From: a virus
Taxonomy: Duplodnaviria > Heunggongvirae > Uroviricota > Caudoviricetes
Strand: one strand, 5' to 3'
Length of the DNA: 64,000 nucleotides
Virus record (IMG/VR): IMGVR_UViG_2795385681_000001
Coordinates: 1 to 64,000 of that record
Position 1 is the stretch's first letter. Each line of letters starts with the position of its first letter. Below, one piece after another: positions 13,141 to 38,850 of the stretch. Both the position numbers and the translations under genes were made by a program. The notes beneath the pieces are model-generated. The model searched no databases, had not been told where the DNA came from, and was given only the letters and a program-made list of their open reading frames with translations.

Positions 13141-13154
13141 GGTTCATGTGGGTA
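13141..13154 (+). promoter_or_regulatory. 14-bp repeat GGTTCATGTGGGTA (copy at the RtcB start)
   Basis: Exact match. The minus strand reads TACCCACATGAACC, giving an 11-codon mini-ORF MNPKRLNTIGT* whose TGA overlaps the RtcB ATG. Confidence 0.6.
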
Positions 13155-13156
13155 CG

Positions 13157-13185
13157 AAAAAAGCCCCCAGCTTTCGCTGAGGGCT
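13157..13185 (-). terminator. stem-loop with a T-run between the tRNA array and rtcB
   Basis: Minus strand reads gccctcagcgaaagctgggggc followed by TTTTTT. Confidence 0.5.
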
Positions 13186-13193
13186 CTTCCGAG

Positions 13194-13264
13194 TAGTCCA
13201 TGCGGGAATCAAACCCGCACCAACACCTTGAGAGGGTGGTGTGCTCTCACTACACCAATGGACC
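13194..13264 (-). tRNA. tRNA (anticodon not resolved)
   Basis: T-arm gcggg-TTTGATT-cccgc (minus sense) with a complementary acceptor. Confidence 0.45.
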
Positions 13265-13270
13265 TAAGGG

Positions 13271-13609
13271 TTATCGCTCAACCCACGTGCCGGATTCGCG
13301 AACCTCGGTCTTGAGGTTCACCGGCCACATATCACGCTCCACCTGGGCACGCTGTAGGTCTTCACGACCAACCTGACGTTTCACCCATAGCTGGAACTTC
13401 GGCGAGCTCGCCATACGCTTGAACGCGGCCTGCTTGTTCTGCAGCTGGCTACGCTCCTCGCGCGACTCACCCACAGCACCGGACGGTTCATGCGTGATCC
13501 GCACACCCGTCTCGCGCTTGTTCTGGTTTTGACCGCCCTTGCCCCCAGACCGGAATGTGTCAACACGACAATCCGCGAGGGTGACAGACACTACTCGTTC
13601 TCTACTCAC
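13271..13609 (-). CDS. arfB: ArfB-like peptidyl-tRNA hydrolase / ribosome rescue factor (RF-1 GGQ domain)
   Basis: FRSGGKGGQNQNKRETGVRITHEPSG carries the GGQ motif of class I release factors and ArfB (YaeJ); basic C-terminal tail. Confidence 0.7.
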   Translation of the reverse strand: MSRERVVSVTLADCRVDTFRSGGKGGQNQNKRETGVRITHEPSGAVGESREERSQLQNKQAAFKRMASSPKFQLWVKRQVGREDLQRAQVERDMWPVNLKTEVRESGTWVER

Positions 13610-13610
13610 G

Positions 13611-13683
13611 TCAAGTCGACGGGATTTGAACCCGCGTCTTCCGCCTCGACAGGGCGACGCTCTGGACCTCTAAGCTACGACTC
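13611..13683 (-). tRNA. tRNA-Asp (GTC)
   Basis: Cloverleaf parsed by hand: acceptor cgagtcg/cgacttg, anticodon loop ctGTCga, T-loop TTCAAAT. Confidence 0.7.
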
Positions 13684-13794
13684 GATACGCCGTTTTCCGC
13701 ACGCCGGTTTTCGAGACCGACGCGCCAGGGTGGACGGCACCCTGAGCAGACTTTCTGGGAATCAAACCCTGGAGCAGCTCTGCAAAAACTCCCG

Positions 13795-13866
13795 TGGAGA
13801 ATCGGGGAATCGAACCCCGGACGCTGGTGTGCAAAACCAGTGCTTTACCAACTAAGCTAAATCCCC
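13795..13866 (-). tRNA. tRNA-Ala (TGC)
   Basis: Acceptor GGGGATT with the G3:U70 identity pair; D-arm gcttagttggtaaagc; anticodon loop ttTGCac; T-loop TTCGATT. Confidence 0.75.
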
Positions 13867-13892
13867 ATCTAAGCTTCAGGAAGGACATATTT

Positions 13893-14321
13893 ATGAAGCT
13901 CAACCGCATTACTGAACTGGTAGCCAACTCGGCTCACCTGGACGGCCTATCCAACAAGATCCTTAAGCACGCTGACGCGGTCGAGGTCTTAGAATCCGGT
14001 GTCCTTAAGGTTATTTCGCGCTCCGTCCACGATGACGCTACTTGCGAAGACAGCCTTTACCTGGCTCCAGGCGAATGGAAGTCGTTCGCTCAAAGGGGCA
14101 CAACCGTGGTGATCGAGTCCGAGGTCCAAGTCTTTGACTTCGAGATGGGCCTCTCAACCGAAGGCTGCGTCAACTTCGTAGCCGCGTACTTTGAACGAGC
14201 TGAAGGTTACGATCCAGATAACGCTCGCGACCTCGCTCGCGAGGTGGTCTACAACCAGCCGGTTGGTAAGGTCTATGGGTCCAACAAGGTCAAGTTTAGG
14301 TTCGTTTCGAACCCGAACTAG
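13893..14321 (+). CDS. hypothetical protein (142 aa) inside the tRNA array on the opposite strand
   Basis: Strong RBS aggaagga before ATG 13893; clean ORF; listed ORF 13794..14321 trimmed. Confidence 0.5.
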   Translation: MKLNRITELVANSAHLDGLSNKILKHADAVEVLESGVLKVISRSVHDDATCEDSLYLAPGEWKSFAQRGTTVVIESEVQVFDFEMGLSTEGCVNFVAAYFERAEGYDPDNARDLAREVVYNQPVGKVYGSNKVKFRFVSNPN

Positions 14322-14347
14322 TCCTCCACGGATCCAACTACCTACGA

Positions 14348-14420
14348 GCCGCATCGAGGTCTCGAACCCCGTACCTCTTCGTTACTAAGGAAGCGCTCTA
14401 GCCTGATGAGCTAATGCGGC
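14348..14420 (-). tRNA. tRNA-Thr (AGT), tentative anticodon
   Basis: Acceptor GCCGCAT/ATGCGGC perfect; D-arm gctcatcaggctagagc; T-loop TTCGAGA. Confidence 0.6.
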
Positions 14421-14425
14421 AAAGT

Positions 14426-14495
14426 ACCTTGCGAGAGAATTGAACTCCCATCCTCGGGGTGTAAACCCGGTGCCCTTCCGTTGGACGAGCAAGGC
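14426..14495 (-). tRNA. tRNA-Val (TAC), tentative
   Basis: T-arm gagag-TTCAATT-ctctc; acceptor gccttgc/gcaaggt; anticodon loop ttTACac. Confidence 0.5.
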
Positions 14496-14621
14496 ATATG
14501 AGCTTTTGGTTGAGGGTGCCCATGCTGCAGCGAGAGGTCCCTGGCGGATGCTCTATCCGCGCACAAGCTTCCGGCGACAACCGAGGTCTCCACCGTAGGG
14601 TCGCCCATCCCAGGGCGTCGA

Positions 14622-14694
14622 ACGAGTGACCAGATTCGAACTGGCACGATCTGTTTGGAAGACAGAGATGCTAACCGTTAAACATCACACTCGC
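14622..14694 (-). tRNA. tRNA-Gly (TCC)
   Basis: T-loop TTCGAAT; anticodon stem tctgt/acaga with loop ctTCCaa. Confidence 0.6.
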
Positions 14695-14699
14695 ATGGA

Positions 14700-14765
14700 G
14701 CGGCAGAGGTGACTCGAACACCCTTGCAGCGGCTTAGGAGGCCACGCACTTTCCGGAACTACCGC
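14700..14765 (-). tRNA. short tRNA-like gene, possibly Arg (CCT)
   Basis: T-arm gggtg-TTCGAGT-cacct, acceptor gcggtag/ctgccgc, but only about 66 nt with a reduced D-arm. Confidence 0.3.
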
Positions 14766-14770
14766 TTGGT

Positions 14771-14841
14771 AGGTTCGCACAGAATTGAACTGTGATTGCC
14801 GACGTATCAGATCGGTGTCCTTACCGTTGGACGACGAACCA
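14771..14841 (-). tRNA. tRNA-Ile (GAT)
   Basis: T-arm cacag-TTCAATT-ctgtg; D-arm gtccaacggtaaggac; anticodon loop ctGATac. Confidence 0.65.
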
Positions 14842-14843
14842 GT

Positions 14844-14914
14844 GGGTCTGGTAGGACTCGAACCTACGTCTCCGACTTAAGAGGACGGAGCTAAACCATC
14901 TCAGCTACAAACCC
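14844..14914 (-). tRNA. tRNA-Lys (CTT)
   Basis: T-arm gtagg-TTCGAGT-cctac; anticodon loop ctCTTaa. Confidence 0.6.
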
Positions 14915-14924
14915 ATTGTTGGTA

Positions 14925-14993
14925 GGGCGCACGGGATTTGAACCCGCAACTCATAGATTAAAAGTCTAGGGTGATTCCGTTTCACCAACGCCC
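14925..14993 (-). tRNA. tRNA-Lys (TTT), tentative
   Basis: T-arm cggg-TTCAAAT-cccg; acceptor gggcgtt/tgcgccc; anticodon loop ctTTTaa. Confidence 0.5.
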
Positions 14994-14994
14994 A

Positions 14995-15207
14995 TTAACT
15001 TGTGATCGCAGGAAACGCTACCCACACATGCGGGTGAGCCTTCCTATATCCATCGCGCCCACATGAGCGCTCAGAGTGGTATCGCTGACAGTCACTAGCT
15101 CTAACGCCGTACTCTGCTTCAACTAGGGCCCTAGCACCTTCCGGGGTGAGCTCCTTGCCCCAGGCAAGATACGAGGCCCCCGCAGCTGTCAGGCGATACT
15201 TGTTCAC
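14995..15207 (-). CDS. possible small protein (70 aa, GTG start) between tRNAs
   Basis: Listed ORF with protein-like composition (LAWGKELTPEGARALVEAEYGV); weak RBS; could be spurious. Confidence 0.25.
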   Translation of the reverse strand: MNKYRLTAAGASYLAWGKELTPEGARALVEAEYGVRASDCQRYHSERSCGRDGYRKAHPHVWVAFPAITS

Positions 15208-15209
15208 GT

Positions 15210-15283
15210 AGTCGGCGCGAGGATCGAACTCGCAGACACCGAGGTTTGAGCTCGGCGGCTTTGCCAGGTTTGCCTAGCCGACC
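15210..15283 (-). tRNA. tRNA with anticodon CAA (Leu-type) but a class I body
   Basis: T-arm gcgag-TTCGATC-ctcgc; anticodon stem ccgag/ctcgg perfect with loop ctCAAac; short variable arm. Confidence 0.5.
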
Positions 15284-15353
15284 AGGCTCGGTGTTTGATC
15301 ACGCAGCTTTACCGAAGTACTGCGGGCCCTTTCACGGGGGCCAGTCGTCGAGT

Positions 15354-15427
15354 ACTCCGAGAGGGATTCGAACCCACAACCTCCAGGGTCTAAGCCTGTC
15401 GCCTCTGCCAAATTGGGCTACCGGAGC
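15354..15427 (-). tRNA. tRNA with anticodon TAG (Leu-type) but a class I body
   Basis: Acceptor gctccgg/tcggagt; T-loop TTCGAAT; anticodon loop ctTAGac; short variable arm. Confidence 0.5.
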
Positions 15428-15531
15428 ATGGTGCCGATACTTTGTGTAGAGCGCCACCCGCTATCTGGGGTAACACGCGCCCAAGCGCCTCGGCCAACGA
15501 GGGAGTTTCACCTTATCGACGGCGCTTTGGA

Positions 15532-15602
15532 GACGAAGACCGGATTCGAACCGGTGTGGGTCAGGGTTGCAGCCTGCCAGCTAGCCACTCACTCACTTCG
15601 CC
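15532..15602 (-). tRNA. tRNA-Cys (GCA)
   Basis: T-arm accgg-TTCGAAT-ccggt perfect; anticodon loop ctGCAac. Confidence 0.6.
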
Positions 15603-15610
15603 TTGTGGTT

Positions 15611-15698
15611 GGTGTGCGCAGGAATTGAACCTGCCGGGGACCATAACGCGAGAACTCGCGCTGCGGACTCGAACCGCCCTCTCACCGAGAGACACACC
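15611..15698 (-). tRNA. tRNA-like region with two T-arm motifs (class II tRNA or tRNA plus fragment)
   Basis: gcagg-AATTGAA-cctgc and gcgg-ACTCGAA-ccgc on the + strand lie within 88 nt; no single cloverleaf resolved. Confidence 0.3.
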
Positions 15699-15715
15699 AG
15701 GTTCGATGCTATCCC

Positions 15716-15879
15716 CTATTCTGCGGCTGGGGCGACCTTCTTAGCCGGTGCCTTCTTAGGCGCTGGCTTCTCTTCAACCGCGTAGTTGAAGTCCTCGAGA
15801 TTGGCAACTCGGGAGATCAGATCATTGACGGCATCGACTACCGGCTTCGGCGCGATTCCGCTCTTCAGAAATTCAGTCA
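15716..15879 (-). CDS. small Lys/Ala/Pro-rich protein (54 aa, GTG start) inside the tRNA array
   Basis: RBS aaagggtag before the GTG; protein VTEFLKSGIAPKPVVDAVNDLISRVANLEDFNYAVEEKPAPKKAPAKKVAPAAE with a histone-like tail; below the ORF-track cutoff. Confidence 0.3.
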
Positions 15880-15904
15880 CTACTACCCTTTCCAAGGTTG
15901 AACG

Positions 15905-15974
15905 TCCCTATGCACGGTTACGATCCGTGGTCGCCGGGGTCACATCCCGGAGCTCTGCCATTGAGCTACACAAG
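15905..15974 (-). tRNA. tRNA-His (GTG) with an unusual T-loop
   Basis: Canonical D-arm GCTCAATGGCAGAGC; anticodon stem ccggg/cccgg with loop atGTGac; T-arm cacgg-ATCGTAA-ccgtg. Confidence 0.5.
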
Positions 15975-16082
15975 GTATGGAGCAAGTGGCCATGGTGTCC
16001 CACATCTGACGGGCTGCGGTAACCGACGCGTGGCTGTGGCATTCCATGTTTATCCGGGCTCTCCATCACCGGCACTTGTCGA

Positions 16083-16156
16083 CCCGTTGACAGGATTCGA
16101 ACCTGCATGCGTTGCGCCTTCGTAGGGCGGTGGGCGCTCCATTGCCCAACAACGGG
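16083..16156 (-). tRNA. tRNA-Arg (ACG)
   Basis: Acceptor cccgttg/caacggg perfect; T-loop TTCGAAT; anticodon loop ctACGaa. Confidence 0.65.
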
Positions 16157-16217
16157 ATTGGAGCCGCATTGGTGCTAGGCTGCGGCGGGCCTAACCAGGT
16201 GCCCCTGGATTTTGCGT

Positions 16218-16291
16218 GGCGGGGGTGGGATTTGAACCCACGGTCTCTGACTTATGAGGACAGCGAGATGGCCGAACTTCTCTACCCCGAC
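16218..16291 (-). tRNA. tRNA-Met (CAT)
   Basis: T-arm gtggg-TTCAAAT-cccac perfect; anticodon loop ctCATaa. Confidence 0.6.
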
Positions 16292-16412
16292 ATGAGACTC
16301 ATTCCGATAGGACAGTTCATCGCCTACCGTATCCGCGCGAGTCGACGCGACCGTTTACGTGGAGTGCCCGGTTTTTCACCAGTAACCGTGGAAGCTGGTT
16401 TCCCTTACACGC

Positions 16413-16486
16413 CGGATCGCTTGGAGTCGAACCAAGGCCCTCTCGGGTTTCAACCGAGCGCTCTCACCAAACTGAGCTACGAACCG
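16413..16486 (-). tRNA. tRNA-Phe (GAA)
   Basis: D-arm gctcagtttggtgagagc; anticodon stem ctcgg/ccgag perfect with loop ttGAAac; T-arm cttgg-TTCGACT-ccaag. Confidence 0.75.
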
Positions 16487-16781
16487 ATTTTTGTTAGAGG
16501 CTGAGAGTACACCTGCTATCGAGAACCTTTGCGGCATTATTGATTCGCCACTTCTCCACGTCATTCCTGAACGTAGTTCTCACGCCCGGTCGGTTACGCC
16601 AACCACTCGTCATGCCGAAAGCTACTCCGCGACTTTGGTTTCGCGATGGGATGGCCGTCCCATCGTTGCGCTACTTGTCTACGAACCACCGTCGCCTTGC
16701 GAGCTCGTGATGGCCCTGGTTCCCGAAGGCCAGGGATTAGAGGCGCTTTTGCTCCTCGGCAGGGGAAGGACTTTTGCTTTT

Positions 16782-16851
16782 ATTGACGACGGGAATCGAA
16801 CCCGCACATCCTGTTCCATATACAGGTGGCCTGCCGTTGGCCTACGTCATT
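16782..16851 (-). tRNA. tRNA (anticodon ambiguous, loop atATGga)
   Basis: T-arm cggg-TTCGATT-cccg; D-arm ggccaacggcaggcc; anticodon stem cctgt/acagg perfect. Confidence 0.5.
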
Positions 16852-17292
16852 CTCGCAGCGGAGAATGATTTGACTGAAGACGTGCTTCCCCATGAAGTTC
16901 CGAACCCTTTTGGGGCACAGAATGCTTCACGTCTCTCGCGCTTTCGCCTGGCGGGGCTAATAACACTCTCTCTCAACCGCATTGCGAGCCGTCACCCGAC
17001 GCGAGATCGATCATGGAAAACGCCCTTGCTTGCGAGGTTCGGACTCAGTTCCCTCCGCTCCACAGGAGGCTTGTTCAATAGCGCTTTCCACCGCACGACG
17101 GCTTGGTAGTCCCACCGGTTCACGGCCCTGGACTCACGCGTAACTCGCCACCTGGCAGCCATCTCTGACTGCTCAAGGATTGGATTGCATGGATTGCCCT
17201 TGCGGGTGGTGGGTTGTCACCCCACCTTTCACCACCTTGCGGTGACTTATGGGCCATGCCCCGAATGTCTAAACAATATCCCCCACAACAGA

Positions 17293-17305
17293 GTTCGTGT
17301 GGGTG
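17293..17305 (+). promoter_or_regulatory. variant copy of the 14-bp repeat (GTTCGTGTGGGTG) in the intra-array spacer
   Basis: 12/13 match to GTTCATGTGGGTG. Confidence 0.4.
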
Positions 17306-17378
17306 ACCCTGGCGTGCGTTAGCCAACCACCGGGGCCAGACAGATCGTGGGGCCGTAGCCGCAGGATCCGTACTTTGC

Positions 17379-17460
17379 GGAGAGGCAGGTATTCGAAACC
17401 TACTGCGAGCAGCGATCCGGTTAGCAACCGGGCCTAGTCACCTGACTAGTTGCGCTCTCC
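17379..17460 (-). tRNA. tRNA-Ser (GCT), class II
   Basis: 82 nt; anticodon stem ccgg/ccgg with loop ttGCTaa; long variable arm; T-arm aggt-TTCGAAT-acct. Confidence 0.65.
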
Positions 17461-17541
17461 AAAATCCACCCCTTCGGCGTCAACACTGGACTCGACGCAC
17501 CTGTATTCACTCTTAGCCATGGCCAGGCGGGTGGAGAACGA

Positions 17542-17625
17542 GGAAGGTAGAGGAATCGAACCCCCGAGTTTTCAGGCTCGCCCCGGTATTCGACGCCGGT
17601 TGCCGACCATTCAGCGGTGCCTTCC
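17542..17625 (-). tRNA. class II tRNA, probably Ser (CGA)
   Basis: 84 nt; T-arm ggggg-TTCGATT-cctct; acceptor ggaaggc/accttcc; anticodon loop gtCGAat; tentative. Confidence 0.45.
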
Positions 17626-17706
17626 ATATGCCCCATTTTGATAACGCAACTGGAGCTACTGCGGACAGTCAACTCATGGCAGGTACCTACCGGTTGACCC
17701 AAACGC

Positions 17707-17777
17707 TGACGACCCTGGATTCGAACCAAGAACTGCGAAGTTCAGAGCTTCGTGTGTTGCCGTTACACCAATCGTCA
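17707..17777 (-). tRNA. tRNA-Gln (CTG)
   Basis: D-arm gtgtaacggcaacac; anticodon stem cgaag/cttcg perfect with loop ctCTGaa; T-loop TTCGAAT. Confidence 0.7.
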
Positions 17778-17857
17778 AAGCTGAGACTGGCCTTGCGGGC
17801 AGTGGAACGTTTCTGCTTGCCGCAAGCCTTCAGTTCGTTCCACACCAGTCTCATTGT

Positions 17858-17933
17858 CTCGCCGTCAGGAGTCGAACCTGCACACCCAAAGGAACAGATT
17901 TACAGTCTGCGTTGATCGCCTATTCGCGACGAG
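17858..17933 (-). tRNA. tRNA-Tyr (GTA)
   Basis: T-arm gcagg-TTCGACT-cctga; anticodon loop ctGTAaa; extended variable region. Confidence 0.55.
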
Positions 17934-18011
17934 ATTGGAGGCACATCTTTTGCAGTGATGTGCCAATTCGTCTGGCCCACAATCGGATAGCTACTCCACT
18001 GTCGACGGCGC

Positions 18012-18082
18012 TGGCCTACCTGGACTCGAACCAGGAGTCAGGGATTAACAGTCCCACGGTTTGCCGATTAACCGACAGGCCA
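18012..18082 (-). tRNA. tRNA-Asn (GTT)
   Basis: T-arm cctgg-TTCGAGT-ccagg perfect; D-arm ggttaatcggcaaacc; anticodon loop ctGTTaa. Confidence 0.7.
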
Positions 18083-18288
18083 AGACCTCGGATATTTCAC
18101 GTCGATACCGAGGATAGGACGGACACCTTTCGCGGTCTCCCGCTCAGCTGTCAAGCTGGCCCAGATTCTCCCGACCTCACGGGTTAGCTCTGTGGCAGGC
18201 GCTTAGGTCTACTTCCCACCATGGTGACGCTAGGTGGGCGTAGCGGACAGTTCCCTTCTCGTGGAGGTGTACTGACAACCCGTCCCGT

Positions 18289-18358
18289 CAAGCTGGGAGG
18301 AATTGAACCTCCACCACCGGTACCCAAAACCGGCATGATCCCGTTTCACTACAGCCTG
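18289..18358 (-). tRNA. tRNA-Pro (TGG)
   Basis: T-arm ggagg-TTCAATT-cctcc perfect; anticodon stem ccggt/accgg perfect with loop ttTGGgt. Confidence 0.7.
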
Positions 18359-19007: not shown

Positions 19008-19063
19008 ATTGAAACTACTATCTCTATGGAGTTTTCAAATGTCATGCCACACAGGGGCATTGC

Positions 19064-19133
19064 ACGGGTGGAGAGAATCGAACTCCCACTAACGGGTTTG
19101 GAATCCGTTGTCCTACCTTTGGACCACACCCAT
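19064..19133 (-). tRNA. tRNA-Trp (CCA)
   Basis: T-arm gggag-TTCGATT-ctctc; anticodon loop ttCCAaa; first gene after the upstream motif and terminator. Confidence 0.65.
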
Positions 19134-19187
19134 ATCACCAGGTTTTCGGGCTCTGGTAGCCCCTCTTGCTGTACCGAGTCTATGGCC

Positions 19188-19201
19188 TACCCACATGAAC
19201 C
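19188..19201 (-). promoter_or_regulatory. 14-bp repeat (minus strand reads GGTTCATGTGGGTA) just upstream of the tRNA/tmRNA array
   Basis: Exact TACCCACATGAACC on the + strand, between the terminator at 19209-19247 and tRNA-Trp; position fits a promoter for the array. Confidence 0.55.
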
Positions 19202-19208
19202 TCCACGG

Positions 19209-19247: not shown

Positions 19248-19267
19248 AAACGCCGTGAAGTCAGTGC

Positions 19268-24242: not shown

Positions 24243-24508
24243 TAGGAGGCTGTGAAGCAGTCGAGGGTCGTACCAGTGAGAAGGGCCTCGAGCAGCCTGT
24301 CAGCCATCTCGTTGCGCTCTTCCACGGTCTGCACCCAGGCGCTCTTTGGAGACGCTACGAGCGTGTCGGGCCCTGCGACGATCAGGAGGTAACGTCCATC
24401 CTCCAGTGCGACCGTGACGTGTCCGTTGGAGTAATGGAACGGGAGCTGCGTCCCTGGTGTTTTCAAAGTTTCCATGTGTCCCAGTTTATTTCGGCACACT
24501 GGGTTCAT
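24242..24508 (-). CDS. hypothetical protein (88 aa) whose ATG lies inside the 14-bp repeat
   Basis: Start MNPV inside TACCCACATGAACC (minus sense); alternative start METLK at 24475. Confidence 0.4.
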   Translation of the reverse strand: MNPVCRNKLGHMETLKTPGTQLPFHYSNGHVTVALEDGRYLLIVAGPDTLVASPKSAWVQTVEERNEMADRLLEALLTGTTLDCFTAS

Positions 24509-24515
24509 GTGGGTA
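24502..24515 (+). promoter_or_regulatory. 14-bp repeat GGTTCATGTGGGTA
   Basis: Exact copy at an intergenic boundary. Confidence 0.55.
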
Positions 24516-28144: not shown

Positions 28145-28371
28145 CGCTCGATCGCACGTTCAATCGATGCGTATCCAGATCGGACGGCGATGCCGTAGAC
28201 CTCACCAAGTGCGAAGTACGCGTCGCCAACCTGCTTGTTCAGCTCTGCGACCTGAAGCTTCTGTGTCGCAATGGTTTCCGAGAGCGCCTGAATGCTGCCA
28301 TTCAGTGTTGCTGTTGCGCCCCAGTCATTTCCATCCATAAATAGAATGGTATCGACGGGGTCGGGGTTCAT
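28123..28371 (-). CDS. hypothetical protein (82 aa); ATG inside the 14-bp repeat
   Basis: Start MNPDPVD encoded by CCCACATGAACCCC. Confidence 0.45.
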   Translation of the reverse strand: MNPDPVDTILFMDGNDWGATATLNGSIQALSETIATQKLQVAELNKQVGDAYFALGEVYGIAVRSGYASIERAIERWAGLNR

Positions 28372-28378
28372 GTGGGTG
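28365..28378 (+). promoter_or_regulatory. 14-bp repeat GGTTCATGTGGGTG
   Basis: 13/14 match; contains the start codon of 28123..28371 on the opposite strand. Confidence 0.55.
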
Positions 28379-28507: not shown

Positions 28508-29152
28508 CTAGATACCCAACTCGCGGCACACCAAACTGAACAACTGGCTAAAGAAGTTCGATGACTTCCCAATGCGTGCAGCCAGATCCGTAGTAGGAGT
28601 GGATGGATTTGCAATGACTGCATCCACCACGTCCAAGCATGCCTGACGGCCCTGGTGACCCACGCGACGGTGGAACACAGCGAACTCAGGCTGAGAGGAC
28701 AGCATCTCGTGAGCCAACCGCGCTTTGACCAGGCGATTGCGGTAGCGGGTATCCACACCGTTGTGCTCATGGAGAGCCTCACCCGGTAGTGGCTCTACCG
28801 GGTGATAGGTGATCTTCTTGATCGCGGGCCACTCGGGGCGCAACGCAGCGCGCTCAGCAGGGGTGGTTCCACCCCAGATGCCGAACTCCTCGCCATTCTC
28901 CAGGGCCCAGGTACGGCACTTATCCCTCACGGGGCAGCGTGAGCACGTGGCCTTTGCGCGTTGTTCGGCATAGGCCACCATTTCTGTAGCCAGATCCTGC
29001 GGAACTCCATCCTCCACGAGGTCTTCCACGGTCTGGAAGTGGGACTCAGTATCAGATGGATCGCACACAGCTTTGCTGCGCCAATCAAGATCCAGGTCGC
29101 TAGCCGGTGATGGGTGGTCGATAATAGCGGTCATTTGGTTGTATCCCTTCAA
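28508..29152 (-). CDS. whiB: WhiB-family transcriptional regulator with a C-terminal extension
   Basis: AVCDPSDTESHF..ATCSRCPVRDKCRTWALENGEEFGIWGGTTPAER: four Cys and the GIWGG turn. Confidence 0.7.
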   Translation of the reverse strand: MKGYNQMTAIIDHPSPASDLDLDWRSKAVCDPSDTESHFQTVEDLVEDGVPQDLATEMVAYAEQRAKATCSRCPVRDKCRTWALENGEEFGIWGGTTPAERAALRPEWPAIKKITYHPVEPLPGEALHEHNGVDTRYRNRLVKARLAHEMLSSQPEFAVFHRRVGHQGRQACLDVVDAVIANPSTPTTDLAARIGKSSNFFSQLFSLVCRELGI

Positions 29153-29629
29153 TCAATCCCGGTCGTGTACCGGAATTTTTGTTGCAAGTGCGACAAGTTC
29201 GGCGAGAGTACAGCTAACCCACTGCTTCATGGGATCGGTTGTGCCCTTGCGCTTGTGAACGAAGAACCCGGCAAGAGCGCCCGCGTTCTTGGCCTCCACT
29301 TTAGCCTCCCCGACCCCTTCGGGAAGGCTTAATGTAGTTACGTCCTTAGTTTCGATAACGATGTCTTGGCCACCGATTCGGAAGTTGACAACGTCACCCT
29401 TGTCGACACTCCCCCAGCTTGGTGCAACTTGAATGTTGGGATCCTGCAATGCCTCTCGCAGACCATCAACAATAAGGCGATTGAACTTCGCCCCTGCGGC
29501 TTTCGCCGAACTTCGGTTCCTACTCAACGACCCGCTACCTTTACGTTCGAACCTTCTCACGCGACAGACCGTCAACCTCCCCGGTTGGCTGTCCGTCGTT
29601 GGAATCACCATACCGAGAGGGTATGACAT
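29153..29629 (-). CDS. PD-(D/E)XK nuclease-like protein
   Basis: GDVVNF...DIVIETK (D..ExK) motif; start MSYPLG 4 nt downstream of a 14-bp repeat copy. Confidence 0.4.
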   Translation of the reverse strand: MSYPLGMVIPTTDSQPGRLTVCRVRRFERKGSGSLSRNRSSAKAAGAKFNRLIVDGLREALQDPNIQVAPSWGSVDKGDVVNFRIGGQDIVIETKDVTTLSLPEGVGEAKVEAKNAGALAGFFVHKRKGTTDPMKQWVSCTLAELVALATKIPVHDRD

Positions 29630-29633: not shown

Positions 29634-29646
29634 TACCCACATGAAC
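29634..29646 (-). promoter_or_regulatory. 14-bp repeat (minus sense GTTCATGTGGGTA) directly upstream of an ATG
   Basis: + strand TACCCACATGAAC; 4 nt before the ATG of 29153..29629. Confidence 0.55.
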
Positions 29647-29775
29647 TGCAAACGATCCCCCACCTCCCCATTAGCTTCCTCCCAGCTCCCTGTCAGGAGA
29701 CTGTAACCCCGGTCACATGGGGTAAAAATCTGGGGATTGTTGATTACCAAACAACTACTGGGTGAGGTTTGCCGT

Positions 29776-32310: not shown

Positions 32311-32757
32311 TCAGTTGTCGGACCATGGGTCTCGTAGATCAACGTCTCTATGATATTCGCCCCCTAGTAGGTTCATGTGGGTGAACTTTCCCAGGTGGTG
32401 CTGGTAGATCGGAATGGAACTTGGTTCTTCCCAAGGCCTTACGTGATACCCCTCAGAGTGTGCCGCGTTGGGGTTGTGTTCGATCCAACCGTGGCAACCG
32501 ACAGTTCCGTGGCCGCAGACGTGGACGATGTTGTCGAGGCTCCAGAGGCCGCCCTGAGACCTCTTCTTGCGGTGGTGCATGGACAACCCACCTCCGATGC
32601 CGCAACGCTCACACAGCCCACCTGAGCGTCGAGGGATCTCAATCCGGCAGAGCCTCTCCGTCACAACAAAGACGAGTTGAACGCAAGCATGGCTTCCACT
32701 AGCTTGCGTCGAAAGTTCTCCAGGGAGATGAACAGCGGGAATTGATAAACCCCACAC
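32311..32757 (-). CDS. HNH endonuclease
   Basis: CERCG..HHRKKRSQGG..NIVHVCGHGTVGCHGWIEH. Confidence 0.65.
   Translation of the reverse strand: MWGLSIPAVHLPGELSTQASGSHACVQLVFVVTERLCRIEIPRRSGGLCERCGIGGGLSMHHRKKRSQGGLWSLDNIVHVCGHGTVGCHGWIEHNPNAAHSEGYHVRPWEEPSSIPIYQHHLGKFTHMNLLGGEYHRDVDLRDPWSDN
32370..32383 (+). promoter_or_regulatory. 14-bp repeat GGTTCATGTGGGTG inside the 3' end of the HNH gene
   Basis: 13/14 match; minus sense encodes MNLL.. in the HNH frame. Confidence 0.45.
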
Positions 32758-33924: not shown

Positions 33925-34231
33925 GGCCCAGCTCCTTCGACCATTCCTCGAAATGCACCGAGGAGTTCTCGTCGCGGAGTGCCTTGCTGTCCAACCACTT
34001 AGCGAGCCCCTCAGCAGACTGAGCGGTGTATCGCCTCACAGCTTCTTCGGAGATTCCTCTGGCCTGTAGCGCCTTTGTGCGGTCATGGTTGTAGGAGGCG
34101 AGCACCACGCGCATGTTCGTGGCCATTCCCGCTGGGTACTCTCCATACTCTTCCAGGTAGTCGAGTACATGCGAGAGGGCCACATACAAGACCTCGCCGT
34201 ATGAGATGGGAATCTGGGCAGCGCTACTCAT
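33917..34231 (-). CDS. hypothetical protein (about 104 aa)
   Basis: Start MSSAAQ chosen to avoid a long overlap. Confidence 0.45.
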   Translation of the reverse strand: MSSAAQIPISYGEVLYVALSHVLDYLEEYGEYPAGMATNMRVVLASYNHDRTKALQARGISEEAVRRYTAQSAEGLAKWLDSKALRDENSSVHFEEWSKELGLE

Positions 34232-34583
34232 CGCGCATCTCGTCCTCAAGGCGATTGAAGAAGTCTCCCTCGGCCTCGTTGTACAGCTCGGTTACGGTCT
34301 CCAGGAAGTTCTTGCCGACCTGCTGCGCGATGGCCTCGCCTGCGGCCACGCCCATGGGTCCATAAGCTGCATGGAGGTACTCAGCGAGCATCTCGTTGTA
34401 TCCGAGAAGCCAGTCCGCGATCTTGTCGCGGTAGCTCTTGGGGATGTTTGTGTGTAGCGCCAGGAAGTTGATGAACGTTCGCGGCGCTTCGGCGATGGCG
34501 AATGGCAGTGAGATCGCGAATGGATCGAACTGCGGGGCCTGCGGGGGCAAATAAATAGGATCTGGGATTGGCTTGCGGGCCAT
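34224..34583 (-). CDS. hypothetical protein (119 aa)
   Basis: Listed ORF. Confidence 0.5.
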   Translation of the reverse strand: MARKPIPDPIYLPPQAPQFDPFAISLPFAIAEAPRTFINFLALHTNIPKSYRDKIADWLLGYNEMLAEYLHAAYGPMGVAAGEAIAQQVGKNFLETVTELYNEAEGDFFNRLEDEMRDE

Positions 34584-34960
34584 TAGAAGTTTCCTCCACC
34601 GGTTCCGAATACTTGCGCCAACAGCTTGGAGCGCATTCCGATCGCGATCAGTTCTTTCTCAAGCGCTGACAACCGGCGCTCACAGAGACCAAGCTGGGCA
34701 TTGGCGATATCGAGATCGATGCGCTCTTGCTCAGTCTCCTTGGCTGCGTGAGCCTTTGCCTTGCCAACTGCACCCCCGAAAGACATCATTTGACGTGCTT
34801 CGGCTACCGCGAATCGAGTTGCGCGCCAGTCCTTCTGCGCACGGTGCCAAGCGAGTATCTTGTTCCATTTCGTGATCAGGTAGTTCACCCGGTCCAACTC
34901 ACGATCGATGTGATCCGGCGTGAGATCCGTATAGTCGTAACCCTCTAGCTCGTCACTCAT
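34583..34960 (-). CDS. hypothetical coiled-coil protein (125 aa)
   Basis: Internal start MSDELEGYDY; the upstream part of ORF 34583..35143 is Arg/Ser-rich junk overlapping two other genes. Confidence 0.5.
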   Translation of the reverse strand: MSDELEGYDYTDLTPDHIDRELDRVNYLITKWNKILAWHRAQKDWRATRFAVAEARQMMSFGGAVGKAKAHAAKETEQERIDLDIANAQLGLCERRLSALEKELIAIGMRSKLLAQVFGTGGGNF

Positions 34961-35147
34961 TGCGGTAGATCTCCTGCAGCACACCGGGGATGTCTGAGTA
35001 GTGCAGTGCGCGACGCTCCAGGCAACGGGCCTGATCGTTCTTGCACTCGAGCCAGTCGATCCGCCACGACGTGAAGGAGCGCACAACCCTGCCGCCAAAC
35101 TCTTCGACGTTCGCCGATTCGGGACTGACGGTGAGATTCGCAATCAT
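34953..35147 (-). CDS. hypothetical protein (64 aa)
   Basis: ATGA-coupled on both sides. Confidence 0.4.
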   Translation of the reverse strand: MIANLTVSPESANVEEFGGRVVRSFTSWRIDWLECKNDQARCLERRALHYSDIPGVLQEIYRNE

Positions 35148-35353
35148 TCGGCCTCATACCATTCAGTGACAGTGCGCTGCATCAGCTTCCGCTCAGGATG
35201 CTGGGATGTGTAGTTTCGCGCCTGCGCCTCTGTAAGTTCGCCAACCTCATCGCGGTGCGCCAGCTCTCCGCACGGATACGCGAAGTTCCACTCCAGGTGG
35301 CACTTTGGCAACGACTTAGACTGGATCTCGAGCTGCTCACTGACGCTGCTCAT
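35144..35353 (-). CDS. hypothetical protein (69 aa)
   Basis: Listed ORF. Confidence 0.45.
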   Translation of the reverse strand: MSSVSEQLEIQSKSLPKCHLEWNFAYPCGELAHRDEVGELTEAQARNYTSQHPERKLMQRTVTEWYEAE

Positions 35354-35880
35354 CCGATACCGTCCACAATCCCCAGCGCCACAGCCTCATCCATCGCCAG
35401 GTACCACTCTTTGTCCCGAATGCGTTCACGGAATTCGGCGTGCGAGATATTGCAGCGGTCATGGGCGTCGATGTATCGCTCCACCCACTTCTCGCAGAAC
35501 TCGAGCTCATTGCGCACCTGGGCCATCGTCTGGTCATGGAACGTAGACAACGGCTCGTGCATGTAGATGTAGCTCATTCGTCCACCAAGGCGCTTATCAC
35601 CAGCCTGGAGGATCAAGGAAGCGGCAGATGCAGCACGACCGCGTACGCGCGTGGTGACGTGGTGTCCTCCACCACCCGCAACAGACATCCGCACGAGCTC
35701 GTCGTAGATGGCGTCCCCGTGCTCCATGGACCCACCGGGTGAGTTGATGATCAGATCGATTGGACGCCCAGGCGTATTGATATCGATGTCACGAAGATGG
35801 CTCAGGGTCTTACGGGCGACCTTGTCATCGATCTCGCCATGGAGACTGAGCTCTGCTGGATCTGATGGTTCTGCAGACAT
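35350..35880 (-). CDS. clpP: ClpP-family serine protease
   Basis: LIINSPGGSMEHGDAIYD..GRAASAASLILQAG..MHEP pattern; start MSAEPSD overlapping the upstream stop. Confidence 0.75.
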   Translation of the reverse strand: MSAEPSDPAELSLHGEIDDKVARKTLSHLRDIDINTPGRPIDLIINSPGGSMEHGDAIYDELVRMSVAGGGGHHVTTRVRGRAASAASLILQAGDKRLGGRMSYIYMHEPLSTFHDQTMAQVRNELEFCEKWVERYIDAHDRCNISHAEFRERIRDKEWYLAMDEAVALGIVDGIG

Positions 35881-36737
35881 CAGGCAACCCTCTTCAGCTC
35901 GGGGACGACACGAAGCTTGCGGGCCCACTGGCCACCACGAACAATGTCTCGGCCACGCGCAAGGGGAACCTCGTAGATCCCCCACTTCCAGCGGCCACGC
36001 GAGTCGGGTGTCTGCGGGCAATGGAACATCAGAGCGGTCTCGGTGTCACACTCATGGTCAGCGAACTCAGCGGTGCCATCGGCGTTCGGCCAGAAGTCGG
36101 CCCACGGAATGTCCTGATGGACAGCGGAATCCTGGTAGAGCTTGCCAAGTACGTAGAGCGCTAGCTGTGCGCAGACACCCATCCGGTACTGGTCGTCCTT
36201 ACCGGTCTTGATGTCGACCATATAGCGGGTGCCATCCCATTCGACAATGCGGTCAGCGGATCCAGCCGCACGCAGCGTGGCGATCCGGCCATCCGGCAGC
36301 TCGATGCGATCATTCGCCTGCAGGAAGACCTCACGCGCCAGGAAGTTCATCCCAGGAAGGGATGCGATGAATTCGTGGTACCCATCCAGGATGGGCTTCA
36401 TATCCTCATCAACCAGTGACCAGTCGAGGTTCCCCTCTTCCAGAACACCCGTGAAGTCGTGGATGGAAGTTCCCCGGGAGGACTTGTTCATCGCCCCGCC
36501 GATGGTCTCGGCCTGTGAGATGACCTCTTTGATCTCGCCCTTGCTCGAATCCCAGGAGCCGCCCTTGGCGATGATCGCCTTGACGCGGTTCAGAAGCTGG
36601 GGATTCTGCGCGAGACCGAACATGGCATTGGCCTGGTGCCAGGCGAACAACCCATCTCCGGGCTTGTCGAGATCCTTAGCCAGCGTCGAGCATCGCGAGT
36701 AGGCGACCCGACGTCCACCGTCAGGGGTGAACAGCAT
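35880..36737 (-). CDS. RecB-family / Cas4-like PD-(D/E)XK exonuclease
   Basis: RIVEWDGTRYMVDIKTGK D-x-K nuclease core; paired with the downstream ERF gene. Confidence 0.6.
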   Translation of the reverse strand: MLFTPDGGRRVAYSRCSTLAKDLDKPGDGLFAWHQANAMFGLAQNPQLLNRVKAIIAKGGSWDSSKGEIKEVISQAETIGGAMNKSSRGTSIHDFTGVLEEGNLDWSLVDEDMKPILDGYHEFIASLPGMNFLAREVFLQANDRIELPDGRIATLRAAGSADRIVEWDGTRYMVDIKTGKDDQYRMGVCAQLALYVLGKLYQDSAVHQDIPWADFWPNADGTAEFADHECDTETALMFHCPQTPDSRGRWKWGIYEVPLARGRDIVRGGQWARKLRVVPELKRVA

Positions 36738-36778
36738 GGGTCGCTGGTATCGGTCCCGAGGGATGGCCCAGTCAGTAA

Positions 36779-37417
36779 TTAGGCGCTCGCAAGCAGCTCA
36801 AAGTGGGCAGCTGTCGCGGTCAGTGCATCGACATCAGTGGAGCTCACTACCGCACCTCCATCTGGGTACGTCTCGGCGAACCATGCCTGAACGTCCTTCG
36901 ACACGACACCGGCAGCCTTGGCTGCGGCCTTTACGCGCTCGAGTGCCTCAGCGGCTTCGGGGTTGGTAGCGACCTTCTTCGGCGTGGCCTTACGCGGCGC
37001 GGCCTTGGCTGGAGCTGATGCCGCGTTCCCGTCATCGTCCACATCTGCCACCAGACCAAGCGCAGCCATGTAGGCGTAGCGACGTGCGTAGGTGATCGCG
37101 GAGCCGTGAGCCTGCGGATCATTCTTCACCGGGTGGAGGACCATCGTCGAAGCGGACTGCTCACCGCTCTCATGGATGACAACAGACTTGAGGGTGTCGT
37201 AGATCTTGCCATCGGCATTGAAGTACGAAGGCTGCTGCGACACAGCAAGTCCATGCTTGGCCAGTACCGGCTGAGCCTCGCGCATCACTGCAGGAAGGTC
37301 CGCATACTTCGACTTGAAGAACGGGTTCTGAGTGTCCTTGGCTACGAAGCCAACTTCGGCCTGGAAGGCAACGAGGGCCTCTGCGAGGGTTGAATGCTTG
37401 ACGGCTTCGCTCACCAT
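36779..37417 (-). CDS. ERF-family single-strand annealing protein
   Basis: FQAEVGFVAKDTQNPFFKSKYADLPAVMREAQPVLAKHGL; RBS taggag before ATG 37417. Confidence 0.7.
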   Translation of the reverse strand: MVSEAVKHSTLAEALVAFQAEVGFVAKDTQNPFFKSKYADLPAVMREAQPVLAKHGLAVSQQPSYFNADGKIYDTLKSVVIHESGEQSASTMVLHPVKNDPQAHGSAITYARRYAYMAALGLVADVDDDGNAASAPAKAAPRKATPKKVATNPEAAEALERVKAAAKAAGVVSKDVQAWFAETYPDGGAVVSSTDVDALTATAAHFELLASA

Positions 37418-37478
37418 GCTCCTATGTAGAGAAAAACGAAAAAAATGAATGCCCATGGCCACCATGGGATTTGAAACA

Positions 37479-37697
37479 TCAATTGAGGGTCTTGTCGAGC
37501 ACCTTGGTGATGAGCACCAGAATCCCCGCAAGCATGGCCATCACGAGCAGGAAGGCAGTTCCTGCCCACATGGGAGCGGTGACCCACCACCAGGACCAAT
37601 CCTGGACTGGGTTATCCCAGGGACAGATCTTCAAGAGGGCAAGGATGCCAAAAAGGAGGGTGCAGCCAATCGTGCCGCCTGTGCTGGAATCACTCAC
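37479..37697 (-). CDS. small membrane protein (72 aa, GTG start)
   Basis: GTGA overlap with the upstream stop; two TM helices and a W-rich segment. Confidence 0.35.
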   Translation of the reverse strand: MSDSSTGGTIGCTLLFGILALLKICPWDNPVQDWSWWWVTAPMWAGTAFLLVMAMLAGILVLITKVLDKTLN

Positions 37698-38098
37698 GCT
37701 GGTGTCACTTTCTTCTGAGCCTGTAGGACCGCGCCGTGACTCCGGGCGACTCCACGGATGAGTTCCACGACCTGCCCCTGCGTACGGGCCGGGTCGTCGT
37801 TGTAGGCCGACACATCCCCACCGAATCCAGCTGGGAGCGCGCGCGAAATCAACCGGTGGGCTCCCCACCAGGTCCGGGCGTCGTCCTTCGCTGCCGACTT
37901 ACCTACTGCGGCGTCAAGAGCCCCAAGGATGTCGTAGCGCATACCGTCGCCTACCCGCTCAAAGCGGATTCCCTGAGTCCATCCGTTTGCCACAAGACGG
38001 GCCCCGATCTGCAGAGTTGCCGATACCGCGTCTGGATTATCAAGCACGACAACGTTGTTATTACGCGCCAAGCGACGTAGCCAGTTAGCAGTAGACAT
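37694..38098 (-). CDS. hypothetical protein (134 aa), first gene of the leftward operon
   Basis: Start MSTANWLRRLARNNN; a 14-bp repeat copy lies 17 nt upstream. Confidence 0.45.
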   Translation of the reverse strand: MSTANWLRRLARNNNVVVLDNPDAVSATLQIGARLVANGWTQGIRFERVGDGMRYDILGALDAAVGKSAAKDDARTWWGAHRLISRALPAGFGGDVSAYNDDPARTQGQVVELIRGVARSHGAVLQAQKKVTPA

Positions 38099-38115
38099 AG
38101 CTGCAATTCTATCAA

Positions 38116-38358
38116 CTACCCACATGATGCAGTTTGCTGGCGAACAAGCCAACTGTTGTCTCGCACCACATCAAGAGGCCATGGCTCAACGTCCATTCCT
38201 CGGAGTTCTTTGCACATCCGCCCGCGCTGGATCTTCAGCGTCAGTACAGCGTCTGCATCAGATTCCTTGTGCCGCTCGCGAATTGCCTCGTCAAGCAGGA
38301 AGAGCTCAAGGATGTTTTCGTTCCGACTCTCCAGGAACTTGGCTGCGGATTCACTCAC
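38116..38358 (-). CDS. possible small protein (80 aa, GTG start) in the regulatory hub
   Basis: Listed ORF with protein-like composition but no RBS; doubtful. Confidence 0.2.
   Translation of the reverse strand: MSESAAKFLESRNENILELFLLDEAIRERHKESDADAVLTLKIQRGRMCKELRGMDVEPWPLDVVRDNSWLVRQQTASCG
38117..38129 (-). promoter_or_regulatory. 14-bp repeat (TACCCACATGATG), candidate leftward promoter/operator
   Basis: 12/13 match, 17 nt upstream of ATG 38098. Confidence 0.5.
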
Positions 38359-38388
38359 GCCCCAAGCGTGGTGCTACTCCCCGACTGT

Positions 38389-38401
38389 GTTCGTGTGGGT
38401 T
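38389..38401 (+). promoter_or_regulatory. variant 14-bp repeat (GTTCGTGTGGGTT)
   Basis: 11/13 match, in the divergent region. Confidence 0.35.
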
Positions 38402-38573
38402 TGAGCGCCGAGGGACACGACCCCCTCGGCGGCGCAACTGCGCACTCAGGTCGACAGGAAGGGATACTACTTTGCTCGGCCTCCCTGAGTCTCGAGACCC
38501 ATTCTACTGATGCTCCCATTCCTGGACTTCCTGATTGAAGATTCCCGCGTGTTTAAGCAGGTCACAGTGGTTT

Positions 38574-38587
38574 CACCCACATGAACC
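38574..38587 (-). promoter_or_regulatory. 14-bp repeat (CACCCACATGAACC)
   Basis: 13/14 match; the + strand encodes the mini-ORF MNPAPCRSLPKRRVRTQ*. Confidence 0.5.
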
Positions 38588-38836
38588 CTGCACCGTGTCG
38601 TAGCCTCCCTAAAAGGAGAGTGCGAACGCAGTGAGCACGCACCTCCCGCTAGGGAGGCCCACGCCGGATAGGCGTGGCTGCCCGAAGGGCATACAACCTC
38701 CAGACCGCAGTGTCCCCACTTGGGCAGGGTTCTCGGTGCAATGAATAACCCTTGCAGTCAACGCATCTCACGTTGACATAGAGGTAGTCGTTACGTAAGT
38801 CGGGAACGCTACTAGAGCGCGTGCGCGCGGGATAGC

Positions 38837-38850
38837 CACCCACACGAACC
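38837..38850 (-). promoter_or_regulatory. variant 14-bp repeat (CACCCACACGAACC) 20 nt upstream of the first rightward gene
   Basis: 12/14 match. Confidence 0.4.

Follow-up and report, generated by a model that had tools for sequence, protein, structure and literature searches.

What is the function of a 14-bp sequence that recurs at gene boundaries of a tailed-phage genome in both orientations, and which protein reads it? The repeat, GGTTCATGTGGGTA, was examined in positions 1 to 64,000 of the IMG/VR virus record IMGVR_UViG_2795385681_000001; this whole stretch of 64,000 nucleotides is referred to below as the window. Judged from its sequence, the repeat is real, non-random and a functional regulatory element, and very probably a cis element that binds a protein and forms an integral part of early promoters in a temperate phage of the Cluster M-like, MabI type. 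The explanation considered best overall, with a probability of roughly 60%, joins this early-promoter element to a phage-encoded reader, a fusion of a WhiB domain with a helix-turn-helix (HTH) domain, and to a form of control that is coupled to RNA polymerase (RNAP).

Distribution and conservation of the repeat

The window was found to contain 11 copies of the motif, with the core TCRTGTGGGT, three of which match GGTTCATGTGGGTA exactly (13141, plus strand; 19188, minus strand; 24502, plus strand). Allowing up to two mismatches to the 14-mer, 10 sites were observed against 0.36 expected from dinucleotide shuffles. Two copies are variants, AGTTCGTGTGGGTG at 17292-17305 and TGTTCGTGTGGGTT at 38388-38401, in which no more than one base of the 10-bp core is changed. 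A position weight matrix built from the sites themselves scored them at 15.5-28.3 against a background of at most 10.2, with the exceptions of 55003 (17.0) and 20119 (14.6). The former was considered as a twelfth site and rejected as a chance match, because it lies inside a minor-tail gene and has drifted at the neutral rate in the related prophage prophiT49-2. An exact scan of IMG/VR with the 14-mer returned mostly single chance matches. All 11 positions listed in a preliminary description of this DNA were confirmed, as was their intergenic or gene-end placement: each copy lies in a non-coding gap or at a gene boundary of the early region, between 13141 and 38850, and the cluster reported for the divergent region comprises four sites (A-D, within 38117-38850). 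Relative to transcription, three copies are forward and eight are reverse. The motif is asymmetric, with no dyad except CATG, and a palindromic or dimer-type reading was discarded, since the second half-site is absent in every lineage studied (0 palindromic sites of about 60). In prophiT49-2 a twelfth copy of the motif (record position 10496) was observed outside the window, in the divergent gap beside the small terminase gene, pointing into a leftward gene block that includes a gene annotated 'RNA polymerase inhibitor' (record 6715-6942).

The motif is kept at all 11 orthologous places in prophiT49-2 and prophiGD54-2, and in an ungapped comparison of the window with these two prophages the core is 98.8% identical against 76-78% for the 20-nt flanks. 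Among seven more MabI-type prophages from IMG/VR, 7/7 sites within reach were kept. By these comparisons the motif is under purifying selection.

The window shares 79-84% nucleotide identity with the Mycobacterium abscessus prophages prophiT49-2, prophiGD54-2 and prophi86-1 of cluster MabI, which is classed with Cluster M (PMC8092301), and it resembles Rey, PegLeg and Reindeer, which are mycobacteriophages of Cluster M, in patches. As Cluster M-type were regarded genomes with a long-tailed siphovirus layout, a large tRNA array with a transfer-messenger RNA (tmRNA), RtcB, and a serine integrase far from attP; the tRNA array, tmRNA and gene order of the window match those of the relatives, and it was assigned to the MabI/Cluster M-type mycobacterial prophages. 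A serine integrase is present, as in a temperate phage. The window is inverted with respect to the relatives' records, so that its minus strand is the phage's rightward strand. Genes of the early region (about 8700-38100) lie on the minus strand and include 22 tRNA genes and one tmRNA; the divergent control region (38100-38870) follows, and next to it a short plus-strand operon. About 16 kb of the prophage lie outside the window. One array member, at 16781-16851, was called by ARAGORN as tRNA-His with anticodon ATG, the relatives' equivalent being annotated 'tRNA-OTHER (Gln|Pro)', and is an odd or degenerate member of the array.

Promoter anatomy of the sites

When read in the direction of local transcription, the sites fall into a reverse class, TACCCACATGAACC-N13-hexamer, and a forward class, GGTTCATGTGGGTA-N5-hexamer. 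A strict TANNNT was found at forward N5 or reverse N13/14 in 8/11 sites, against 0.9% for a random site (binomial ~8e-15), and an offset scan gave one peak per class, at N13 for reverse and N5 for forward sites. All copies are in phase with either a -10 hexamer or the start of a gene. The conserved 3' end of the motif falls at -18 in the forward class (core -28..-19) or at -39 in the reverse class (core -38..-29), and these two positions are mirror images about -28.5.

A start codon stands 6-7 nt past the -10 at 13115 (rtcB), 24475, 28338, 38098, 38876 and 29611, which is the spacing expected of leaderless mycobacterial mRNAs made from SigA promoters, and by their sequence five or six of the promoters would be leaderless. 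All five TANNNT-N6/7-ATG/GTG-ORF patterns found on the minus strand of the early region carry the motif. The one other TANNNT-N6/7-start pattern in the scanned stretches, at 43293 on the plus strand, is without the motif and lies in a window-specific insertion (41650-44200), in which a 91-aa open reading frame (ORF) has this leaderless-type pattern of its own (TAAGGT-N7-ATG). Strong terminator hairpins with U-runs stand directly upstream of the rtcB (13141) and tRNA-array (19188) sites, and a weaker one precedes 28365; this divides the early arm into separate transcription units, and each unit begins anew at a promoter that bears the motif. The individual sites are as follows.

13141..13154, plus strand: rtcB site, exact copy, reverse class, TACCCACATGAACC-N13-TACGAT (13127..13122)-N6-ATG 13115
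17292..17305, plus strand: tRNA-array internal site, AGTTCGTGTGGGTG, reverse class, N13, TATTGT (17278..17273)
19188..19201, minus strand: site at the head of the tRNA/tmRNA array, exact copy, forward class, GGTTCATGTGGGTA-N5-TAGACT (19182..19177)
24502..24515, plus strand: dnaQ-up site, exact copy, reverse class, N13, TAAACT (24488..24483), N7, ATG 24475
28365..28378, plus strand: site downstream of WhiB2 (g87), reverse class, N13, TACCAT (28351..28346), N7, ATG 28338
29634..29647, minus strand: site of the RusA-like resolvase and WhiB2 operon, AGTTCATGTGGGTA, forward class, N5-TGTCAT (29628..29623)
32370..32383, plus strand: ssb site, reverse class, N14, TATCAT (32355..32350), upstream of the SSB gene
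38117..38130, minus strand: site D, GCATCATGTGGGTA, forward class, N5, TAGAAT (38111..38106), N7, ATG 38098
38388..38401, plus strand: site C, TGTTCGTGTGGGTT, reverse-class geometry relative to GTG 38358 of an 80-aa gene, poor hexamer GCACCA
38574..38587, minus strand: site B, reverse toward the plus strand, N13-TAGCCT (38601..38606)
38837..38850, minus strand: site A, GGTTCGTGTGGGTG, reverse for the plus strand, N13-AACACT (38864..38869), N6, ATG 38876

At the rtcB site the hairpin with its U-run (-25.7 kcal/mol, ~13157-13190) lies directly upstream on the minus strand, and the GenBank start of prophiT49-2 rtcB is the same ATG as 13115, 6 nt past the -10. The 17292 site is kept in prophiT49-2 and prophiGD54-2, where the -10 reads TATAGT. 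Beyond the 19188 site lies tRNA-Trp (19133..19062), and a hairpin with a U-run (-28.7 kcal/mol) stands just upstream of the site. ATG 24475 opens a 77-aa ORF upstream of the DnaQ-like gene block. The hairpin upstream of the 28365 site has a T-run, and the flank of this site, 'gaaaaagtagag/acccc...cggcggcgcgtg', is also present beside the different motifs of L140 and L144, two prophages introduced below. The 29634 site, which is the weakest-consensus copy and fronts the candidate reader's own operon, has an alternative arrangement of N10-TACCCT (29623..29618), N6 and ATG 29611. At the ssb site, which is syntenic with PegLeg L122:10519, L140:6733 and L144:6781, the SSB start codon (ATG 32289) leaves a leader of ~60 nt after the promoter.

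In the control region, site D is the first rightward early promoter and fronts the DUF6197 gene (37694-38098), site C is preceded by a -27 kcal/mol hairpin without a U-run, and ATG 38876, beyond site A, starts the 142-aa first gene of the leftward early operon. The hexamer of site B is TAGTGT at the same position in Rey and 1 nt off in PegLeg, and the predicted promoter would transcribe a conserved non-coding block (38607-38836) on the plus strand. The non-coding segments 38400-38510 and 38590-38830, between sites A, B and C, are ~97% identical in the window, prophiT49-2 and prophiGD54-2, compared with ~80% for the flanking genes; they contain serial hairpins and a sole variable patch, of 60 nt, beside site B, and PegLeg and Rey still show traces of parts of them. 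When the control region was scanned with Rfam and for consensus promoters and terminators, no match was returned, and for the conserved leader between sites B and A neither a common fold nor an Rfam match was supported. This non-coding region may serve as a leader, encode a small RNA or resemble an origin.

The phasing of the motif bears directly on two functions suggested by the preliminary description. The first was that the ATG embedded in the motif serves as a start codon, giving M-N-P or, at rtcB, a short upstream ORF. Consistent with a translational or RNA signal (a start codon, a start-associated sequence or an RNA processing site), the motif contains an ATG, and in the GenBank record of prophiT49-2 this ATG is annotated as the start of gene 66. 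However, it lies upstream of the -10 hexamer, and the motif as a whole lies upstream of the predicted transcription start site; the motif is found in both orientations, the upstream ORF at rtcB overlaps the -10, and the motifs of other lineages have no ATG. Furthermore, when the DUF6197 (gene 66) proteins from the window, MabI prophages and Cluster M phages are compared, their alignment begins at the downstream ATG, past the -10 (MST.../MGT...). The start-codon role was accordingly abandoned, the ATG inside the motif is incidental, and a translational signal is given next to no probability.

The second suggestion was a likeness to stoperators, known from Cluster A phages, at which a bound repressor stops elongating RNAP. 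The sites do resemble stoperators in being asymmetric, 13-14 bp long, multi-copy and intergenic. However, only 11-12 copies exist, all at promoters of non-structural operons and none inside the late operon, they occur in both orientations relative to transcription (3:8), and each is phased with a -10, unlike stoperators (PMC9934374). This explanation is regarded as highly improbable.

Motif alleles and the candidate reader

At syntenic promoters of PegLeg, Rey and Reindeer, a repeat with the core GATTACAGGA was found, which also forms a forward class (CTGACCTGC-GATTACAGGA-N6-hexamer) and a reverse class (TCCTGTAATC-N16-TANNNT). GATTACAGGA is absent from the sites in the window and the MabI loci, and TCATGTGGGT is absent from those in PegLeg, Rey and Reindeer. 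Counterparts in PegLeg/Rey exist for sites A-D and for the ssb, g87, dnaQ-up, tRNA-array, tRNA-internal and rtcB sites; at B, C and g87 (the site after WhiB2) the flanking sequence is homologous across lineages, and it is the motif itself that has been replaced. Further lineages came to light when the C-terminal domain of the window's larger WhiB protein was used as a query.

L140, a prophage in Logan run ERR8266664: motif GGTAAGACGGGA, 7 sites
L144, a Mycolicibacterium palauense prophage: motif GTGAAACAGGT, 8 sites
L139, a short contig: TCCCGTTTTGC-N16-TACAGT, 1 site
Phage Kumao: AGCACCGGAA-N5-hexamer, -10 at 5/5 sites

Promoters could be matched as syntenic in the Cluster M, L140 and L144 lineages, but not in Kumao. 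In every lineage the 3' end of the motif falls at -18 or -39, and all alleles have in common a 3' end of the form RYRGG(T/A) or CCGGAA-like and differ in their 5' part. Orientation at a given promoter varies between lineages, the tRNA-array site being forward in the window and reverse in PegLeg and L140, and the rtcB site reverse in the window and forward in PegLeg, from which it follows that the two classes are equivalent in function. The idea that orientation decides between activation and repression was rejected on the same grounds. Taken together, the sequence comparisons point to a lineage-specific regulator site that would control the early regulon, and identify the motif as a different allele of the Cluster M system rather than the same repeat. 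The series of at least five alleles with identical geometry constitutes a natural specificity-swap experiment for a WhiB-HTH regulator.

The same series bears on the possibility of a reader supplied by the host, be it an alternative sigma factor or a transcription factor, in which case motif differences would reflect the hosts (M. abscessus, M. smegmatis and others). Replacement of the -35 region by the motif in the reverse class would fit such a reader, as would the confinement of the MabI allele to M. abscessus prophages and of GATTACAGGA to M. smegmatis phages. However, Kumao and the Cluster M phages infect the same M. smegmatis mc2155 and their motifs differ, the -10 is of the principal-sigma type (TANNNT) and not of the extracytoplasmic function (ECF) type, and the forward-class position (-28..-19) is not one at which sigma region 4 would sit. 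A host reader is therefore thought very unlikely, and an ECF-type reading in particular (SigL-like, TGAACC) was ruled out by the TANNNT -10.

Among the conserved genes examined, one sequence-specific DNA-binding candidate was found.

28508..29134, minus strand: candidate reader (WhiB2), a 208-aa WhiB-domain protein with a C-terminal linker helix and an HTH like the C-terminal part of WhiA

The N-terminus of this protein is a bona fide WhiB domain. The AlphaFold model of residues 105-208 is confident (predicted local distance difference test above 90 for residues 30-104) and consists of a long helix, a beta hairpin and a three-helix HTH; WhiA was the top match of the C-terminal domain in two independent fold searches. 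The fusion is rare, with five other 50%-identity clusters among 1.8 billion representatives, and all the occurrences seen are in Kumao or in phages and prophages of the Cluster M-like kind. All lineages that were recovered through the fusion with enough sequence have motif-type promoters. The alignment of the C-terminal domain was too divergent for a locus search. The putative recognition helices are given by lineage.

MabI: KSSNFFSQLFSLVCREL
Cluster M: RRGEY(I/V)NSMLRE(V/A)C
L144: RKATWFNVVLRELF
L139: RKATWFNKMFRDVC
L140: KSRPWFNDLLRSIF
Kumao: RSQTWLNGILNGIF

The recognition helix is lineage-specific, and the three WFN lineages also have the most similar motifs (AAxACxGG). Between PegLeg and Rey, which have the same motif, the C-terminal part is 67-75% conserved against 57% for the WhiB domain; between the window and PegLeg, whose motifs differ, the values are 27-29% and 44%, respectively. 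This co-variation of helix and motif is suggestive only, and would support the WhiB-HTH protein as the reader.

The preliminary description had named an HTH protein (41757-42005) and the WhiB proteins for binding assays. The larger WhiB protein stands as a good candidate. The HTH_58 ORF (41685-42005) is an unlikely reader, as it lies in a 2.5-kb insertion missing from prophiT49-2 and prophiGD54-2, which share the motif. What remains of that description is its outline of a promoter element or repressor site, borne out by the phasing of every copy and by purifying selection; the start-codon role, the stoperator analogy and the HTH candidate did not survive. The insertion (41650-44200) is located between the oxidoreductase and NrdH genes and also encodes a 356-aa protein of unknown function (42212-43282; phrog_35557). 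A further candidate, the gp152-like protein at 5663-6130, was rejected as a repressor, given its conserved His/Cys motif and no detectable HTH. Its gene, on the plus strand at the integrase side, corresponds to prophiT49-2 gp152, PegLeg gp139 and Rey gp155 and has no family annotation; the invariant pattern VHTT..CR.I...C.HC in the protein hints at a bound metal. Downstream of the gp152-like gene, PegLeg and Rey have a terminator and a GATTACAGGA promoter, where the window has no motif copy.

Given the promoter-element reading, the phage's own WhiB-HTH fusion is put forward, by analogy with WhiA and WhiB, as a tentative reader, at somewhat less than even odds. The WhiB domain of the fusion would bind the principal sigma factor of the host at region 4, and the motif, recognised by the WhiA-like HTH, would stand in for a -35 element. 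On the very probable promoter-element reading itself, whatever the reader, the promoters are SigA-type and -10-only (TANNNT), many of them leaderless and several restarting just past an intrinsic terminator, and one lineage-specific factor could switch about 11-12 transcription units together, including recombination, replication, the tRNA array and rtcB. An RNAP-contacting module fixed at the pivot (~-28.5) would let a monomeric, asymmetric site work in two mirrored positions. An RNAP-coupled monomeric reader is favoured because the spacing is base-exact, the site is asymmetric, no dimer site exists and the geometry is mirrored. As to the sign of regulation, control coupled to RNAP, through recruitment or positive control and perhaps with autoregulation at 29634, has a slight and weak preference over simple occlusion. 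The most specific version, in which a single-chain WhiB-WhiA(C-terminal domain)-like iron-sulfur protein sits on sigma region 4 and its sigma-4-like HTH serves as a replaceable '-35 reader', is speculative and rather unlikely. If true, it would mean a private promoter code for each phage lineage (at least five alleles) and a lytic/lysogenic decision possibly coupled to redox or nitric oxide stress through the cluster.

Several points weigh against the combination of promoter element, WhiB-HTH reader and RNAP-coupled control. In the WhiA/WhiB complex the HTH site is upstream of the -35, and not over the -35 or in the spacer, and the -10 hexamers seen here are good enough to work alone in mycobacteria. 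The presence of the motif on the first early promoters (A and D) is awkward for a pure activator scheme and natural for an immunity operator, and sites B and C are without good -10 hexamers and are clustered like operator arrays. The phasing offsets were picked after inspection of the data, and the same offsets recur in four other lineages; L140 site 245 is off the common spacing, and the Cluster M phages are without a motif ahead of the WhiB2 operon. Finally, the lineages are related, so that shared descent alone could yield the helix-motif pattern, and any phage protein would show some of it.

Some of these points would fit an operator of a conventional immunity repressor, which in the lysogen would sit on all early promoters and occlude host RNAP over the -35 position or in the spacer, with the motifs defining immunity groups. 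The phage is temperate, and the location of the MabI repressor is stated to be unclear (PMC8092301). Every early promoter, including the first divergent pair, has a site, four sites are clustered in the control region, and the -10 hexamers would seem to suffice by themselves. One and the same promoter can have the motif in either orientation, depending on the lineage, as if only occupancy mattered, and M1 and M2 phages have GATTACAGGA in common. M1 and M2 phages are reportedly homoimmune (Pope et al. 2014). However, occlusion needs no base-exact spacing or mirror geometry, yet both are seen in five lineages, and no palindromic or dimer-type site occurs among the roughly 60. Of 20 ORFs from the control region and from around the integrase, none was matched to a classical HTH repressor by Pfam or PHROGs, and the annotations of prophiT49-2, prophiGD54-2, PegLeg, Rey and Reindeer list no repressor, including the part of prophiT49-2 that corresponds to the ~16 kb outside the window. 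An immunity operator is thus considered unlikely, with an appreciable share of the probability; WhiB2 could itself be the immunity protein, and the two readings are compatible.

MabI prophages reside in clinical M. abscessus, and for their unlocated immunity system the motif provides a map of ~11 early promoters, a testable operator/promoter code and one strong candidate reader. The allele series would predict immunity or cross-regulation groups among Cluster M-like phages, which would be useful for choosing or engineering therapy phages. If the WhiB fusion is the reader, it would represent a new route by which phages take over the host sigma factor in Actinobacteria.

Comparison with known systems

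Conserved repeats CR1-CR4 are reported from Cluster M phages (PMC7953290). The GATTACAGGA family is most likely the transcription-type Cluster M repeat (CR1/CR2), and the motif of the window is probably its counterpart. The class of element is known in Cluster M; what is new, and can be put to the test, is that the motif belongs to a series of alleles, that its mirror geometry is conserved, and that a WhiB-WhiA-like protein is a candidate for its reader. Pope et al. 2014 (J Virol 88:2461) are said to have reported Cluster M repeats suggesting regulation of transcription and translation; in a literature search that had this paper outside its reach, no description of the motif for MabI prophages was found. 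The window shares with the Cluster M repeats the genome type, the syntenic intergenic positions in the early arm and divergent control region (with homologous flanks at B, C and g87), the two orientation classes at the same -10 distances, and a companion repeat family, containing a Shine-Dalgarno (SD) sequence, in the right-end leftward genes. It differs in its consensus (TCATGTGGGT against GATTACAGGA), in a forward class without the -35-like CTGACCTGC extension, in having a copy ahead of the WhiB2 operon, and in having none near the integrase-side gene (PegLeg L122:38303). The companion family was observed at 387-6200 on the plus strand, as at least nine copies of ACACACGGAAGGGATA a few nucleotides before start codons, with a stem-loop (e.g. 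CGCCTGGTGTATTCAGCACCAACAC) and another box, CTGAATAGGCA, ahead of each copy. The family corresponds to the SD-containing ACACACGGAGAAGGGAA of PegLeg, which also has upstream stem-loops, and in contrast to the promoter motif it hardly differs between the two lineages; the ACACACGGAGAAGGGAA family is probably the translation-type Cluster M repeat, CR3/CR4.

The start-associated sequences of Cluster K phages occur in one orientation at translation starts and overlap the ribosome-binding site; here, in contrast, the -10 stands between motif and start, both orientations are used and there is no SD sequence. In T4 middle promoters a MotA box is located 12 +/- 1 bp from the -10, in one orientation, and acts with AsiA ('sigma appropriation'). 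The arrangement in the window is similar in that a -10 is combined with a phage-specific asymmetric box ~12-13 bp upstream replacing the -35, and in the coupling of a phage protein to sigma region 4, which is established for T4 and proposed here. Unlike the MotA system, the window has two orientations and belongs to a temperate phage. MotA and AsiA are not annotated in the relatives, and the prophiT49-2 'RNA polymerase inhibitor' gene corresponds to a position outside the window.

The operators and stoperators of Cluster A (L5 gp71, Bxb1 gp69; MabJ prophages, PMC9934374) are likewise asymmetric sites of 13-14 bp in many copies, probably read by a monomer, with an immunity-group-specific consensus, and the one true operator that overlaps Pleft is a further likeness. 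Stoperators, however, have one orientation, are spread genome-wide including the late genes and are not promoter-phased, whereas the copies in the window are fewer, lie all at promoters and use both orientations.

In Streptomyces, WhiB binds region 4 of sigma-A and bridges to WhiA, whose sigma-4-like HTH reads an asymmetric motif that adjoins the -35 of a leaderless gene (PMC10243135). The GACAC motif upstream of the -35 has no equivalent in the window, where TCATGTGGGT is found at -28..-19 or -38..-29, that is, in the spacer or over the -35 position and at two mirrored places. The candidate reader, known here from its sequence and fold model, also differs from WhiA in being without the homing-endonuclease-like domain. 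The likeness to the WhiA/WhiB promoters of Streptomyces and Mycobacterium lies in the short asymmetric motif and the leaderless target, and in a candidate reader that, by its predicted fold, for which WhiA is the best match, would join both modules in one chain.

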